DNA of 64,000 nucleotides from Gemmatimonadota bacterium (GTDB taxonomy: Bacteria; Gemmatimonadota; Gemmatimonadetes; Gemmatimonadales; GWC2-71-9). The stretch is taken from assembly GCA_036679605.1 (NCBI GenBank), contig JAZDCZ010000419.1, forward strand, positions 160,001 to 224,000, in the 5' to 3' direction. The translations under genes were made by a program, and so were the position numbers. Shown here piece after piece: positions 7,047 through 64,000 of this stretch (position 1 is its first letter; every line of letters starts with the position of its first letter). The notes below the pieces were generated by a model. It searched no databases and had not been told where the DNA came from. It saw only the letters and a list, made by a program, of their open reading frames with translations.

Positions 7047-7796
7047 ATGGAGAATCAGAAAGAGTCGCTGATCAAGCTCGATGGAGTAAAGAAGGTATTT
7101 TACACCGACGAAGTAGAGACACACGCACTCGCAGAAATCCACCTGGATATCCGCGAGGGTGAGTACGTCGCCATCGCGGGCCCCTCGGGTTGCGGCAAGA
7201 CCACACTCCTGTCGATTCTTGGTCTACTCGACACGCCTTCGGATGGGCAGTATACCCTAGCCGGAACCCCGGTCGCCAACATCTCGGCTTCACAGCGCGC
7301 CCGAATCAGGAATCGCCAGATCGGCTTCATCTTTCAGGCATTCAACCTGATCGGCGATCTGACCGTGTATGAGAACGTCGAGCTACCGCTCACCTACCGC
7401 GACATGCCTTCGGCTGAACGGAAAAAGCGCGTACAGGAGGCGCTCGAAAAGGTGGGCATGTCTCACCGCATGAAGCACTATCCGTCTCAGCTCTCCGGTG
7501 GTCAGCAGCAGCGCGTAGCAGTCGCCCGCTCGGTGGCCGGTGATCCAGCAATTCTGCTGGCCGACGAGCCTACGGGGAACCTGGACTCGACTAACGGCGA
7601 GGCTGTGATGCAGCTACTGAGCGACCTACACCGCGAAGGAGCAACCATCTGCATGGTCACACACGATCCACGTTACGCCGAGTACTCCGACCGCGGTATC
7701 CACTTGTTCGATGGTCGGGTTGTCGAGGACGAATCAGGCGACCGTGCGAAAGAGCACGAAAAGAAGCTCGAGGAAAGCGGTTTTGAAATGGCTTGA
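7047..7796 (+). CDS. MacB/LolD-type ABC ATP-binding protein
   Basis: [34 protein letters not shown]; start placed at ATG 7047. Confidence 0.95.
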   Translation: MENQKESLIKLDGVKKVFYTDEVETHALAEIHLDIREGEYVAIAGPSGCGKTTLLSILGLLDTPSDGQYTLAGTPVANISASQRARIRNRQIGFIFQAFNLIGDLTVYENVELPLTYRDMPSAERKKRVQEALEKVGMSHRMKHYPSQLSGGQQQRVAVARSVAGDPAILLADEPTGNLDSTNGEAVMQLLSDLHREGATICMVTHDPRYAEYSDRGIHLFDGRVVEDESGDRAKEHEKKLEESGFEMA

Positions 7797-7866
7797 ACAA
7801 GAGCGGGCCACAGGGAGGGTAGCTCGCAGGCAATGGCCGCGGGCTGCCGGCTCGCTCCCAATCAAT

Positions 7867-11950: not shown

Positions 11951-13299
11951 CCAGGGACGGGAACGATAGATCAAGAATCTCGTTCGACTATTTGATCCCG
12001 GTCCTGGCGCTCTTGGGCGGCCTCCCGGGAGTCACCATAGCTCTCATCCTACTCTGGACTGGTGACTTCACTTCCAAAGTACAGTGGACTCTCACAGCCC
12101 TCATAGCAGCATCGTCGATCGGATTTGCCTTTGCCGTGAGAGAACGCGTAATGCGCTCGCTCCAAACCCTCTCCAACATGCTGGCCGCGCTCCACGAGGG
12201 TGATTACTCGATACGGGCTCGACCTTCAAGAGCTTCCGATTCGCTCAGTTTGGCTATGATGGAGGCAAACACCTTAGCCGAAACACTGAAGCAGCAACGG
12301 TTGGGCGCGCTCGAGGCTACCGCTCTACTGCGGAAGGTCATGGAAGAAATCGAGGTTTCTGTCCTGACGTTCGACAGCGACGGAAAACTCAAGTTGGTGA
12401 ATCGCGGAGGCGAGCGGCTCCTCGGTAAGCCTGCCAAGCGTCTGCTTGGGCTCAGCGCGCACCAACTGGGGATCGCGGACTGCCTGGAGGGAACTACGCC
12501 GCGCATAGTAGAGCGTACCTTTCCGAGTGGAGCCGGCAGGTGGGAACTGCGGACCAGCATGTTCCGTCAGGACGGCCGGTCACATCAGTTGCTGGTACTG
12601 TCAGACCTAACCCGAGTGCTGCGTGAGGAAGAACGGACGACATGGAAGCGCCTTATTCGTGTGCTGAGTCACGAGATCAACAATTCTTTGGCGCCGATTC
12701 GCTCCATAGCCGACAGCTTGCACAGTTTGCTAAATCAAGAACAACGTAGATCGGACGCAGAAGACGATCTGAAGAAGGGCCTGACAATTATCGGCTCTCG
12801 AGCTGAAGCGCTTAGCAGGTTCATGGGATCGTATGCGCGTCTTGCACGATTGCCCCCTCCAACTCTTTCCTCGTTGGATGTGGGAACGTGGGTTCGGCGT
12901 GTCACGGCACTGGAAACTCGACTTCCTGTCAAGCTTACGCCGGGTCAAGAACTGACAATTCTGGCCGATGGAGACCAACTCGATCAGTTGCTCATCAACC
13001 TAGTAGACAACGCAGTAGACGCCGCACTGGAGACCAATGGCAACGTGGAGATCAGCTGGCATACAGTCAACGGAAATCTCGAGATTGTTGTGGCGGATGA
13101 AGGTCCCGGTCTACCCACCACCTCTAATCTGTTCGTGCCGTTTTTTACAACCAAGGAAAAGGGCTCAGGAATCGGGCTGGCACTTTGCCTCCAGATAGCC
13201 GAAGGCCATGGCGGTACGATCGAACTTACCAACGGAAACGAAGGACACGGCTGCAGAGCCGTGCTACGCCTCCCGATTAGAAATGCCCGAATAGAGTGA
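11947..13299 (+). CDS. Sensor histidine kinase (NtrY-like; 2 TM, PAS)
   Basis: LSHEINNSL H-box, NLVDNA, DEGPG, FFTTK, GSGIGL. Confidence 0.93.
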   Translation: MTRDGNDRSRISFDYLIPVLALLGGLPGVTIALILLWTGDFTSKVQWTLTALIAASSIGFAFAVRERVMRSLQTLSNMLAALHEGDYSIRARPSRASDSLSLAMMEANTLAETLKQQRLGALEATALLRKVMEEIEVSVLTFDSDGKLKLVNRGGERLLGKPAKRLLGLSAHQLGIADCLEGTTPRIVERTFPSGAGRWELRTSMFRQDGRSHQLLVLSDLTRVLREEERTTWKRLIRVLSHEINNSLAPIRSIADSLHSLLNQEQRRSDAEDDLKKGLTIIGSRAEALSRFMGSYARLARLPPPTLSSLDVGTWVRRVTALETRLPVKLTPGQELTILADGDQLDQLLINLVDNAVDAALETNGNVEISWHTVNGNLEIVVADEGPGLPTTSNLFVPFFTTKEKGSGIGLALCLQIAEGHGGTIELTNGNEGHGCRAVLRLPIRNARIE

Positions 13300-59651: not shown

Positions 59652-59755
59652 GTTATCGCGCTACTCTGACCGGCCGTTCGAAAGCTACATAACTATATGA
59701 TAGACATACAGTTACGGTCGAATATTTGCAAGCATACGCGGGAAGTAGGCTCAAT

Positions 59756-60868
59756 TTGAAGAGAACGGACGCAAGCGACCTTTGGCGTCACCACCTCCAG
59801 GATGAGGCCGACGCCGCGTTCCTATACCGAATTCTGGCTGACGCGGAACCCACCGACAAGAGGAGTGATCTGTACCGTCGTCTGGCCGATGTCGAGGACC
59901 GGCATTCAAAGCTCTGGTGCGAGGTTCTGGAACAACATGGCCATGAGGCGCCCGTGCCAGGTCCCTCGTTCAGAGCGAGGCTGCTCGCCAAGATAGCAAC
60001 AATGTTCGGTCCCACTCTGCTGCTACCACTGCTGCTGAGAGAAGAAGGTCTCGAGGTTAAGGGATACCTCGACATGTACCGACAAAGTGAACCCGGCACT
60101 GCGCGCGACACCGCTCTCACCTTGGCAAAGGAATCAGCCGAACATGCGACGGCGCTGGGCCAGCTTTCAGATGCGGTGGGTGAGCCGTGGCACAGCACTG
60201 GGTCGGGTGGTTTTCTCCGCAACGTCATCTATGGGTTCAATGACGGGTTGACGGCTAACTTCGGCTTGGTTGCGGGTGTTATCGGAGCGGCGTTCGAGTC
60301 TCACATCGTGCTCGTGTCGGGCTTGGCAGGAATGATTGCGGATGCTCTATCGATGGGTTCCTCGGGATACTTGGCTGCGAAAACCGAACGCGAGGTTTAT
60401 GCAAACGAGATCGCGATGGAGCGCGAAGAGATTCGGCTCATGCCCGAACTCGAGGAAGAGGAACTTGCACTGCTGTACGAGGCCAAGGGTGTCGAGACCC
60501 AGCGCGCCCACGAGATGGCACACGACATTATGCGAGACCCTGAGCGCGCGCTAGCCGAAAAGGTGCGCGAAGAACTCAAAATAGGTGATGCACACACTAC
60601 ACCTGTCAACGAAGGTCTCATTACCGGTATCGCTACTGCGGTTGGAGCGTTCATACCCTTCGCTCCGTTTCTCTTCATGGAGGGTCAGGCCGCAGCGCTC
60701 ACTGCTTTCTTGCTTGCGATGACCTCGCACTTTGCCGTGGGTGCGGCAAGGAGTTTCTTCACCGGGCGCGGACTATTCAAGAGCGGCTTAGATATGTTTG
60801 TGGTCGGACTCGGCGTTGCCGTGGTGGGCTACCTGGTTGGTGACCTTGTCGCCAAGGCGTTGACCTGA
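59756..60868 (+). CDS. Rubrerythrin-like domain + VIT1/CCC1 metal transporter
   Basis: DE.DA..LY, E.RH, E.EH; LRNVIYGFNDGL, ALSMG..YL; start uncertain (TTG 59756). Confidence 0.9.
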   Translation: MKRTDASDLWRHHLQDEADAAFLYRILADAEPTDKRSDLYRRLADVEDRHSKLWCEVLEQHGHEAPVPGPSFRARLLAKIATMFGPTLLLPLLLREEGLEVKGYLDMYRQSEPGTARDTALTLAKESAEHATALGQLSDAVGEPWHSTGSGGFLRNVIYGFNDGLTANFGLVAGVIGAAFESHIVLVSGLAGMIADALSMGSSGYLAAKTEREVYANEIAMEREEIRLMPELEEEELALLYEAKGVETQRAHEMAHDIMRDPERALAEKVREELKIGDAHTTPVNEGLITGIATAVGAFIPFAPFLFMEGQAAALTAFLLAMTSHFAVGAARSFFTGRGLFKSGLDMFVVGLGVAVVGYLVGDLVAKALT

Positions 60869-60958
60869 CTAGACCACGAGATTAACCAACCGGTCCTGAA
60901 CGTAAATCGATTTTTTCACGTCGCGACCATCCAAGGACCGGCGCACCGCATCGTGCAG
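60869..60958 (-). pseudogene. leuS: Orphan 3' fragment of leucyl-tRNA synthetase (possible displaced end / att scar)
   Basis: LHDAVRRSLDGRDVKKSIYVQDRLVNLVV* fits the LeuRS C-terminal pattern (V...L.GK.V.K.I.V..RLVN.V); the upstream LeuRS body is absent. Confidence 0.7.
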
Positions 60959-60989
60959 TCGATCCGAAGATTGGGTTCGCTTGGTACGG

Positions 60990-61080
60990 TCACTGGAAGC
61001 AGAAGCCGAACTCAGTAACAGTATATGTGTATTGGTCACTTGCCGTACTTTCACCATCGTTTACTTCAACCTTTATCTCG
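60990..61080 (-). pseudogene. C-terminal remnant of an Ig/PKD-like secreted protein
   Basis: EIKVEVNDGESTASDQYTYTVTEFGFCFQ*, an AT-richer patch resembling the C-terminus of the ORF ending at 63782. Confidence 0.4.
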
Positions 61081-61137
61081 GGCACCGCGGCCATCATGGT
61101 CCTGTCGCTGTGCAGAACGGCGGGTAGTGCGACGGCG

Positions 61138-62394
61138 TTAACCAGTGGGATCCACCACTTTCCCGATAAAGAGAATGGTCCCCGAAATCCGCTCGCGCAG
61201 CACGAAGAGGAACGGCTGGTCGATGACGAACGGCGGCGGCTCACTGATCATGCCGAAGCTGACGGACGTCACCGCCGCCGCTTCCGTGCCCACCTCGTCC
61301 ACCTTGACAAACGTCTTGTGTTGGACCGTACGGATGAAGAGCCCAGCGCCGGGAGTGATGTTGCTGAAGTCTGCCAGCGCTGCGTCGAATGCAATCCCCA
61401 TCCCCAGCGCCGAGAGCACGTCGTTCATTGTGATCTTGTACTCGAACTGGAACTTGGGCATCACCACGATCTTGTTTGCGCTGTCGACCTCGAGCCCGGC
61501 GGTCCACGCCTGCCAGCGATCGCGATCGAACGCGGCGATCACTTCGTCTAGCGTGACACCCGCTGCTGGCACCGCCGCCACCATCGTGAACGCCCCACCG
61601 CCGTACGGCATCTCGATCACGTTCGCCAGTTGGTCGCCGCTGATCCGAACGGGTACCGGGTCCGCATGCGACATGGTGGGGACCGACCTCTCCGTGCCAT
61701 CTCTTAACGTGAACGGCCGGTCGCTGGTGAGCGACTTGTCGAACTGGTTGGTCCAGTCACCCTTGAAGAACACGGCGTTGATCACGAACAGCATGGTTGA
61801 GCGATCGATGGGCCTCGGCGCGATCGAATCGATCCGTCCGTTGGTGTGATCCCTTACCCATCCATCGATAATGTCGGGCGCGTTGGGGGCGCCGAAATCC
61901 AGGGCCTCCACCTGAGCATCGAAAAAGGTGGTGGCCGCGTCCAAGAAGGTGGGGAGCACGGGGGCCTCGGGCCGATGCCATATGGAGTTGGCGAGATTGA
62001 ACGTCACCCGGCGATCCAGATTGACCAACAGGTCGATCAAGCCGCGGTAGCCGTCATTGACCTGGTCGATGGCAAGCCCCTCGAATCCCAAGGTCTTGGC
62101 CATCGAGTCTCTCGTCGCTCCGGCGGCGCCATTGTACGTCATGCCGAGCGCCATGCTCACGCTCAACGGCGAGATAAAGAGGTTTTCGTCGGGATTGGCC
62201 TGGGCATCCACCGCGCGGAACAGACGCATGGCGAAGGAATTGTCGGACTCCACCAACGCCAGCTCCGCCGCGGTCAGCTCCCGGGGCAACACTTCGATGG
62301 GTCCCATGGGTCCTAAGGAGTTGCCACCACCACCGCAGGCAACGGCGAAACCGATGACGGGCACGAACGCGATACGTTTACAGACACGCTTCAT
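61138..62394 (-). CDS. Lipoprotein serpin
   Basis: FAVAC lipobox, NLFISPLS, ANSIW, INAVFFKGDW, PKF, VDEVGTEAAAVT hinge, DQPFLF, GTILFIGKV. Confidence 0.95.
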   Translation of the reverse strand: MKRVCKRIAFVPVIGFAVACGGGGNSLGPMGPIEVLPRELTAAELALVESDNSFAMRLFRAVDAQANPDENLFISPLSVSMALGMTYNGAAGATRDSMAKTLGFEGLAIDQVNDGYRGLIDLLVNLDRRVTFNLANSIWHRPEAPVLPTFLDAATTFFDAQVEALDFGAPNAPDIIDGWVRDHTNGRIDSIAPRPIDRSTMLFVINAVFFKGDWTNQFDKSLTSDRPFTLRDGTERSVPTMSHADPVPVRISGDQLANVIEMPYGGGAFTMVAAVPAAGVTLDEVIAAFDRDRWQAWTAGLEVDSANKIVVMPKFQFEYKITMNDVLSALGMGIAFDAALADFSNITPGAGLFIRTVQHKTFVKVDEVGTEAAAVTSVSFGMISEPPPFVIDQPFLFVLRERISGTILFIGKVVDPTG

Positions 62395-62457
62395 GATTGG
62401 GTACCTCCGTTATCAAGACAATACACACAGTCACGTAGACCTGTCGCGGTTGGCCGG

Positions 62458-63618
62458 CTATGGTGGCGTCACGGCCCACAGCCCCGCGCGGGTCCCGACG
62501 AGCAGCCGACCGTGGGCCGCATCGACCGCCGTCGCCGTCCCCGTCGCGCCCAAGGCCCCCCGGGGCACGGCGAGCGAGTCCCAACTCGCGCCGCCATTCG
62601 TCGTCCGGTACCACCCCAGGTCCGTCAGTTCCCGGAAGGTGCCGTCGGGATTCTTTTCGAATTCAAGGAACACGGTGGCCGCATAGAGCACATCGTTGAG
62701 CTCGGCGAAACCCGCCACCGCACCACGCGGACCCGCGGCACAGTCCCACGAGCCCCTTGCACCCGCCTCGTCAGATTGCATCAGCCCTAACTCGGCCCCG
62801 AGGAACAGTCGGTCTGGCACGTTGGGGGCCAGGGCGAGTGCGTTGGTCGGCGTCTCGACGACCACGCTGTTGCATGTGGGAACTCCTGCGTCCCAGGTCT
62901 CGCCCCAGTCTGTGCTAAAAACGACAAACGGAACGAAGATGTTGCCCTGCCCCGCCACCCAGAGCAGGCCTGTGCGCGCCGGATCGATCAGGATGTCCAC
63001 GTGCCACGCGCAAATGTTGAAGCTTCCGAACACGAACTGCCACGTCTCTCCGGCATCGAGCGAGCGCAGCACGCCGTGGCAGTTGCTCATGAACACCCGC
63101 TGCGCGTTGCCGGGGTCGACCTCCAGGTCGTCAACGAAGACGCGGTACGGGTTGCGGGACTCCGTCGCCAGCCCCCCGTCAAACGGCACCCACGACTCCC
63201 CCCGGTCGAAGCTGGCGAAGACCGCGGCGCTCGTTGTGTCTTCCTTGGAGCCGTTGCGAAACGTCACGCCCGCGAGGAGGCGCGGCGGGTCGGCCGGAAC
63301 ATAGAGCAGCGCCTTCGGGATGAGGTGGTTGTGCCAGGCTTGCGGACCCAGCGCCGTCCACCCGCCGTCCGACTCGAGCCGGAAGATCCCGTGGTCGTTC
63401 GTGCCCGCGAACAGTCCCCAGGGCGTTACGGCGACCTCGGCTATCCACTCCGACTCGAGCCCCAGCAACGTCCAGCAGCCGCTGTCGAGTTCCAGCGGGC
63501 ATACCTGCGAAGAAGATAGGCTATCCGAGCAGGCGGCGAACATGCCCGCCACAGAAACGACGACGACGGAGCGAACCAGCCAATCCGCCACACGGCCGGA
63601 AATGTGTTGCCGTGCCAT
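62458..63618 (-). CDS. BNR/Asp-box beta-propeller lipoprotein
   Basis: FAAC lipobox; SFDRGESW, SLDAGETW, STDWGETW, TTNGGASW; AAGGAG RBS before ATG 63618. Confidence 0.85.
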   Translation of the reverse strand: MARQHISGRVADWLVRSVVVVSVAGMFAACSDSLSSSQVCPLELDSGCWTLLGLESEWIAEVAVTPWGLFAGTNDHGIFRLESDGGWTALGPQAWHNHLIPKALLYVPADPPRLLAGVTFRNGSKEDTTSAAVFASFDRGESWVPFDGGLATESRNPYRVFVDDLEVDPGNAQRVFMSNCHGVLRSLDAGETWQFVFGSFNICAWHVDILIDPARTGLLWVAGQGNIFVPFVVFSTDWGETWDAGVPTCNSVVVETPTNALALAPNVPDRLFLGAELGLMQSDEAGARGSWDCAAGPRGAVAGFAELNDVLYAATVFLEFEKNPDGTFRELTDLGWYRTTNGGASWDSLAVPRGALGATGTATAVDAAHGRLLVGTRAGLWAVTPP

Positions 63619-63781
63619 ATGAGCGCTCCTTTGATGTTTAAGGATTACCGAAGCCTCACCCGCGACGGCCCGCCACCGTGCCGCCGGGGTCAACCGCCCG
63701 CACACGAACGCACCTCCTCTGTTTGAACTAACCCCATGCCCGATGGAAAGTTGCAGGGGTCCGGCGGCACCGCGGGCCGGT

Positions 63782-64000
63782 TCAGTTCAGACACGGCGGG
63801 GCCTGAGAGTTGACGGTAGCAGACAACTGATCGAACCCGTCGGCACCACCGCTATCCAACACGTTGAGCCTCAAGGTGTAACGCGACAGATCTCCCGTCC
63901 AGACGGTGACGTAACTGTCGCTCCCTATCGGAACGCCATTCCTGCCACTGATATGAGTACATTCCCGTGCCACCAGATACCGCCGAGTCATAGAAGCAGT
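63782..64000 (-). CDS. 3' end of a gene entering from beyond the window (beta-rich C-terminal domain)
   Basis: Open to the window edge; ends YTLRLNVLDSGGADGFDQLSATVNSQAPPCLN*. Confidence 0.55.
   Translation of the reverse strand, partial: TASMTRRYLVARECTHISGRNGVPIGSDSYVTVWTGDLSRYTLRLNVLDSGGADGFDQLSATVNSQAPPCLN

Follow-up and report, generated by a model that had tools for sequence, protein, structure and literature searches.

In the genome of a Gemmatimonadota bacterium (G000), a 9.3-kb block of DNA is inserted between leuS and a stranded copy of its 3′ end, and we put at roughly 0.5 the probability that it arrived by homology-facilitated illegitimate recombination with DNA of a close relative, which left the original leuS tail stranded. 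The resulting scar functions like a 3′-end-replacing island, yet it has no integrase, and in the genomes searched leuS is not a recurrent target of integrase elements. The window, i.e., the whole stretch of DNA that was analyzed, comprises 64,000 nt (G000:C357:160001-224000), and the intact leuS lies beyond it on the same contig.

The stranded leuS tail and its live counterpart

The features at the leuS end of the block are as follows.

Window 59726..60868, plus strand: VIT1/CCC1-family gene (PF01988), the convergent neighbor of leuS in relatives (Pfam, synteny)
Window 60869..60952, minus strand: orphan leuS 3′ end, 27 codons and TAG with the frame intact (blastn, alignment to the live tail)
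Window 60943..60952, minus strand: first 10 nt of the repeat, the same in both copies (alignment; sharp start of homology)
C357:230248-232692, minus strand, beyond the window: intact leuS, with its tail copy at 230248-230331 (TIGR00396, blastn)

The minus strand of 60869-60952 translates as DAVRRSLDGRDVKKSIYVQDRLVNLVV*, and its TAG (60869-60871) abuts the TGA of VIT1 (60866-60868), as an earlier note on this DNA had described. That note had assigned 29 codons to leuS; 27 of them and the stop are homologous, while the leading 'LH' and the remainder up to 60990 are not leuS. Its observation that the LeuRS-like sequence breaks off abruptly upstream holds, with similarity to the live leuS falling to background at 60953. 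The reading of the peptide as a LeuRS C-terminus is likewise supported: 23 of 27 amino acids (72 of 84 nt) are identical to the end of the genome's own LeuRS, and a PDB search with the 27-aa peptide gave 11 matches, each to a LeuRS C-terminus and each weak (E 0.6-1.7). The live 65-aa tail matches LeuRS with an E-value of 7e-9, and a Pfam scan of the 62-aa orphan ORF by itself gave no match.

A blastn search of the 6.7-Mb genome returned a single second copy of the orphan (85 nt, 85.9%, E 1e-21, C357:230247-230331), which is the 3′ end of the sole intact leuS (TIGR00396, 906 bits, no stops, 814 aa). The full gene with a different tail, predicted by the earlier note to lie on the minus strand past the window, is thus found there, and the search of the contig that the note had suggested recovers the second copy at its end. 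Together the copies form a direct repeat of 84-85 nt separated by 9,379 nt, with the live gene restored and the displaced fragment at the far end. The homology begins abruptly at the 10-nt identical block, a candidate for an illegitimate joint or a crossover core, and ends 1 nt after the stop codon. The stranded leuS tail is confirmed as a real observation.

The two tails differ at 12 positions in 84 nt, nine of which are third codon positions (p=0.004), and these differences amount to four amino acid changes (L/R, A/S, E/D, R/K) with neither a stop nor an indel. Because 9 of 12 differences fall at third positions, the copies look like two working alleles and not like a gene and its decayed duplicate. 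The congener G001 agrees with the orphan at all four differing residues; of 11 informative bases, it is orphan-like at eight and live-like at three (p=0.11), a pattern that would fit the orphan being the native tail. A relative closer than G001, represented by a contig in sequencing run X1, does not discriminate, as it shows 10 differences to either tail over 54 nt; four of its sites are orphan-like, four live-like and one neither, with three sites near the stop excluded. The flank on the VIT1 side is native under any model.

The inserted block and its empty site

In 10 of 40 relatives, including G001, leuS and VIT1 are convergent and at most 100 nt apart. In 10 more they are separated by 0.4-2.3 kb, and in the remaining 20 the two genes are on separate contigs or far apart, or one of them was not found. 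Metagenome leuS loci were picked by a looser tail pattern, which gave at least 120 distant loci (∼60% aa identity), 40 of them with flanks of only 300 nt; the strict pattern found none. Among the matches listed, VIT1 lies within 100 nt in 117 of 120 loci, two loci end too soon and one has another neighbor; four of the 120 are unconfirmed as full leuS (three end ≤62 nt upstream, plus L164).

The empty site itself is seen in run X1 (sediment, independent study), where the contig of the closer relative, 88-90% identical, joins L007:2954 to L007:12334. It omits exactly 9,379 nt, joins at the edge of 60943..60952 and has the same leuS-VIT1 spacing. Both the expectation that relatives would carry leuS convergent with VIT1, seen in G001, in X1 and in the metagenome loci listed, and the claim that the intervening DNA is inserted are therefore borne out, the latter by the exact empty site of the X1 relative.

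In run X2, the distal junction is crossed by a 7,510-nt contig (depth 18) and the proximal junction by a 1,696-nt contig (depth 15), in both cases with 0 differences, which makes a misassembly unlikely. This run is probably the source sample, and hence a re-assembly rather than an independent sample; no single X2 contig covers the whole insert. Neither an excision joint nor a circle junction is listed among the X2 contigs, and contigs drop rare variants. The 9.3-kb block is a real insertion between leuS and its stranded tail, and contains the following features.

Window 60953..64000, no strand: part of the 9,295-nt insert within the window, continuing to C357:230247 (alignment, Pfam; without recombinase)
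Window 60953..61137, no strand: non-coding distal end, 185 nt (searches of the genome and of serpin loci)
Window 61138..62394, minus strand: serpin (PF00079), cargo, GC3 0.81 (Pfam)
Window 62458..63620, minus strand: BNR/Asp-box repeat protein, cargo, GC3 0.83 (Pfam)
Window 63852..64000, minus strand: 3′ end of a subtilase S8 gene (PF00082), cargo, whole ORF C357:223852-225528 (Pfam)
C357:225871-226086 (L007:7872-8087), plus strand: 72-aa Cys-rich ORF (ORF reading)
C357:226150-227265, in the insert beyond the window: six-bladed propeller protein
C357:227291-230013, in the insert beyond the window: anti-sigma/TPR/redoxin fusion and ECF sigma factor

The G+C content of the insert is 61.6% (9,295 unique bases) compared to 56.4% in the flanks, and the flanking genes have a GC3 of 0.62-0.66. 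Within the insert, GC3 is 0.81-0.83 in the distal part versus 0.66-0.73 in the proximal part, so that the block appears composite and the product of more than one event. Related pieces occur on C422, C294, C13, C212 and C311 of the same genome, in G001 away from leuS, and in X1 as well. The nearest relatives of the serpin are from Gemmatimonadota, and none of 73 serpin relatives (38-55% aa identity) was linked to leuS, VIT1 or integrases. The 185-nt distal end has no significant match elsewhere in the genome or in these 73 serpin loci, contains no repeat, and no promoter- or terminator-like site was found in it.

The subtilase gene is apparently frameshifted near the C-terminus, and its stretch (window 63750-64000 and beyond) is 92% identical over 310 nt to a stretch on C311 that also stands before a BNR homolog. 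The 72-aa ORF precedes the six-bladed propeller gene and has no match in Pfam or NCBIfam. Its translation is hydrophobic at the N-terminus and contains five cysteines, so that it could possibly be a secreted or modified peptide. The subtilase gene, the small Cys-rich ORF and the ECF gene are preceded by three related sequences of 33-38 nt (L007:7565-7602, 7788-7824 and 12030-12069; C357 ∼225564-225823 and 230029-230068). As candidate promoters, these may be read by the ECF sigma factor that the island itself encodes; they were missed by a strict pattern search.

Search for an integrase and for recurrent use of leuS

The earlier note had proposed an island that targets leuS. Of this claim, the insertion and the empty site stand, whereas an integrase, an att arm and recurrent targeting of leuS were not found. 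The expected integrase is missing both from contig C357, where a profile search gave 0 matches to PF00589, PF07508 and PF00239, and from the insert, whose ORFs are cargo only according to Pfam, without a tyrosine or serine recombinase or a remnant of one. The rest of the genome has 35, 4 and 6 matches to these families, respectively. A tblastn search with 10 of the genome's own recombinases as probes gave no integrase match beside leuS in 42 loci from relatives or in the 120 metagenome loci among the matches listed. A scar downstream of leuS was absent from those 120 loci and from 31 loci of relatives (2-19 kb each), with G000 detected as positive control, and viral contigs contained no leuS tail.

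A profile of the leuS tail matched in 370 of 401 family genomes, and apart from G000 only five of these had two matches; the best ≤19 candidates per genome were scored, so that weak orphans may be missed. One of the 400 other family genomes, G161, has a true extra orphan leuS tail. The second tails of the other four were rejected, as they represent a contig-cut copy beside VIT1 (G282), a contig overlap (G314), two full genes (G255) and a spurious match (G353). In G255, a five-contig genome, the two apparently full leuS genes (L231 and L233, on C2 and C3) are ∼87% identical and have similar flanks.

The orphan of G161 comprises 96 nt (L237:10418-10519; G161:C21:64417-64518), is 75% identical and degenerate, and has an internal stop. 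It is located on another contig than leuS, ∼360 nt downstream of a cluster of five tRNAs, and precedes cargo-like genes, including a TonB-receptor-like gene. It starts within ∼5 codons of the G000 junction, a position that could hint at a preferred site. In X1, a homolog of the front of the ECF module reaches, in another context, ∼7 nt from the position of the G000 leuS stop, which leaves no room there for an att arm or an integrase.

A motif of 21-nt period, TGTCCCAA, was considered as an integrase arm and rejected since in many relatives it coincides with the start of a conserved AraC-family gene of 267 aa; a related stretch begins just after the leuS stop, and no other recurrent motif was seen near the ends of the insert. 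Of 301 family genomes, 26 have direct repeats of this type (0 for a control pattern), namely 25 further genomes (L077-L106) and G000, where they lie at these positions:

C178:40626; C212:70052, 133078; C357:116336; C401:30611; C88:41422: TGTCCCAA-type repeat

When 30 of the motif loci were viewed by eye, no adjacent integrase ORF was recognized. The AraC-family gene at the repeat is paired with a response regulator, and the repeat also occurs ahead of accessory modules. Judged by this context, the repeat is likely an operator that would define an undescribed regulon. At C401:30288-30500, a tRNA-Pro gene is closely followed by a second copy of its 3′ end, after which comes the repeat motif.

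A leuS-targeting integrase element is not supported by these searches, and leuS is not a hotspot in the loci and genomes covered. In the full-text literature we found no report of leuS as an attachment site; supplements or the TIGER/Islander database may list one.

A related reading is a site-specific element that has decayed or was mobilized in trans, comparable to e14 in icd or to a CIME. Here, a tyrosine integrase would have recombined the DNA at a core close to where the repeat starts, the attP would have supplied the 84-nt tail, and the integrase gene would since have been deleted or reside elsewhere. The attL/attR-like anatomy, with its abrupt identical start and its end 1 nt past the stop, agrees with such an origin, as do the wealth of PF00589 matches elsewhere in the genome, the second orphan, of similar length, heading a cargo block by the tRNA cluster of G161, and the existence of elements that target lysS and icd. 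We nevertheless regard it as rather unlikely, because the insert is free of recombinases and their remnants, no integrase accompanies leuS in the loci of relatives or the metagenome loci listed, the viral contigs do not carry the tail, the supposed arm motif belongs to the AraC-family gene, and the other orphan tails of the genome (see below) differ in length and share no core. CIMEs are att-flanked and integrase-less, and are mobilized by a neighboring element, with a cognate integrase element present at or known for the site. At the G000 locus the repeat is present and the integrase absent, and the loci and genomes searched revealed no cognate leuS element.

Protein-coding genes as sites of insertion are well documented. 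The icdC pseudogene, a stranded C-terminal fragment, is described for the e14 prophage in E. coli icd (PMC13626634). As in G000, a replacement 3′ end keeps the protein gene intact and a diverged C-terminal fragment lies at the far end of the insert; e14, in contrast, is an excisable prophage, whereas we see no integrase, no phage gene, and no excision joint among the X2 contigs. An aminoacyl-tRNA synthetase gene is also a known attachment site, as streptococcal ICEs described in PMC4701971 occupy the 3′ ends of lysS and other housekeeping genes, with repeats of 13-17 bp at lysS and 12-54 bp overall. In both cases the DNA entered an essential synthetase gene at its 3′ end and left the protein little altered. 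The lysS elements, however, are equipped with a tyrosine integrase and a conjugation module, whereas the leuS block has a repeat of 84 nt that is 14% diverged, and no mobility gene.

Routes of entry and other orphan gene tails

Since the block has no integrase, it likely entered by ordinary recombination with DNA of a relative. In the reading that we favor, homology-anchored and partly illegitimate recombination, the donor would have been a strain carrying the cargo just behind its own leuS. A RecA-type crossover within leuS would have fixed one end of the incoming DNA, so that the recipient received the tail of the donor without disruption of the essential gene. At its other end, the donor DNA would have been linked by an illegitimate joint to a point 84 nt ahead of the stop of the recipient gene, which would have pushed the original tail downstream to its place beside VIT1. 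The gene leuS would be one of many chance anchors in the genome rather than a dedicated attachment site. We consider this account the most economical, as it requires no missing gene and accounts for both the allele-like divergence of the tails and the variable lengths of orphans.

In line with this account, the proximal end of the insert is itself a leuS allele, i.e., homologous DNA, and no recombinase is present. Identity to G001 along leuS varies between 0.61 and 0.86 per 100 nt without a clear step (one congener compared). A donor with the cargo behind leuS was not found, none of the 73 serpin loci being near leuS, and these loci did not reveal how the donor sequence runs on past the serpin flank either. 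Genes for ComEC and DprA are present, which may be weakly compatible with anchored recombination; of 14 control genomes, however, 10 have the former and 11 the latter. Against the account, the block could have lost an integrase gene and arm by deletion, and integrases are plentiful in this genome.

Homology-facilitated illegitimate recombination has been invoked for the displacement of 3′ ends at T6SS and rhs loci (PMC5361080, PMC2884548), and in PMC5361080 the anchored form is described as rare. As at leuS, a single anchor of homology is used in these cases, foreign DNA was added with no integrase involved, and the former 3′ part became an orphan downstream. The loci described there are toxin or rhs loci and variable segments in general, whereas the anchor here is an essential single-copy synthetase gene. 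The rhs loci further resemble the G000 locus in having gene-end fragments of variable length, from related donors, downstream of an intact gene (PMC2935791). The rhs tips differ in being non-homologous toxin domains in arrays, whereas the leuS tail was replaced by an allele and the cargo consists of separate genes.

A Campbell-type single crossover is an alternative in which a circle carrying the leuS tail of a relative together with the cargo would have been integrated by RecA inside the 84-nt homology, leaving two mosaic copies. Repeat positions 19-29 form an 11-nt identical block, and the X1 sequence is orphan-like at positions 11-18 and live-like at 30-48, as expected of the donor allele if the crossover took place in this block; X1 reverts to the orphan allele at position 54, however. 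Moreover, the 84-nt repeat, 86% identical and with no perfect run above 17 nt, is a poor substrate for RecA, and the contigs listed for X2 show no circle junction. The G161 orphan, which fronts a cargo block away from leuS, speaks for a circle, and a circular intermediate has been proposed in a model of C-terminal displacement at rhs (PMC2935791). On balance, we judge this route unlikely.

It is very improbable that the leuS end or the whole gene was duplicated in tandem, that a deletion followed and that cargo later occupied the gap, which would make the orphan a decaying pseudogene. The composite insert, which implies more than one event, and the two full leuS copies of G255 are in keeping with such a history, but neutral decay would not produce nine third-position changes among 12 without a stop or an indel, and the orphan matches the outgroup G001 at every amino acid difference. 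An assembly chimera of two strains, for which one could cite the 434 contigs and 6.34% contamination of the bin and the strain-level paralogs of the ECF module that fragment the assembly, is extremely unlikely given that X2 contigs cross both junctions without differences and at similar depth.

Turning back to anchored recombination, the genome holds 16 further hand-picked orphan gene tails of 32-270 nt. In a scan based on a crude set of 3,825 long ORFs and a simple filter without a tblastn paralog test, low-copy orphan matches that reach the stop were located downstream of their gene in 16 cases versus 4 upstream (p=0.006). The corresponding numbers for the 5′ class were 14 and 11 and for the internal class 12 and 12, with starts being unreliable. 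From the downstream cases 14 were retained and three pairs added, giving 17 hand-picked pairs; left out were C335 (doubtful ORF), C5 (22-nt spacing), and the multi-copy kinase tails on C419, C212, C276, C93 and C383, which are probable paralog remnants. The 17 pairs enclose inserts of 0.2-13 kb and have orphans of 32-270 nt, with 127 of 212 differences at the third codon position. They share no common junction motif, their cargo is unrelated, and the ORFs scanned in the inserts included no recombinase. Among the host genes are comM, a citrate transporter gene, peptidase genes and those for UbiA, HsdM and HsdR. Several of the pairs could be truncated tandem paralogs, and comparison with G001 for the comM, CitMHS and UbiA pairs was uninformative and showed no empty site.

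It is possible, although doubtful, that these tails reflect an integrase-free 'tail-swap' route, in which DNA of relatives would replace the 3′ end of almost any gene, even leuS, and park cargo behind it, and which would partly explain the growth of this genome. If so, orphan gene tails would be a countable and datable record of an under-recognized kind of island gain that integrase-based island finders miss, and the set of scars in this genome could serve to measure the share of island gain that bypasses integrases. The single locus is a modest finding, as displaced ends of protein genes (icdC) and a synthetase gene as target (lysS) have already been published. Its value lies in a precisely mapped, integrase-free gene gain at an essential gene for which both alleles and the empty site are known, and it illustrates that a duplicated gene end is no proof of an integrase attachment site.

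Several of the loci encountered deserve separate mention. On L248 (G000:C408:39350-41705), a 38-nt orphan tail of comM lies 752 nt downstream of the gene and encloses with it a Gp49/HTH toxin-antitoxin-like pair. On L247 (G000:C382:2855-17578), a 13-kb block that separates a C69 peptidase gene from its 54-nt orphan tail contains a heme-uptake operon (TonB receptor, HemS/ChuX, ABC transporter, ExbBD). Four orphan copies, varied in length, of a kinase-family C-terminal tail are found at C419:134409-143618, 14-23 kb downstream of the kinase gene (C419:157864-159402), and similar tails occur on C212, C276, C93 and C383. G000 has a genome of 6.7 Mb with its 35 PF00589 matches, compared to ∼3.7 Mb in the congener G001. 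The region C343:50015-149584 harbors 24 tRNA genes in several clusters, on a contig that also encodes a tyrosine recombinase, and looks like a large tRNA array of the phage or island type.
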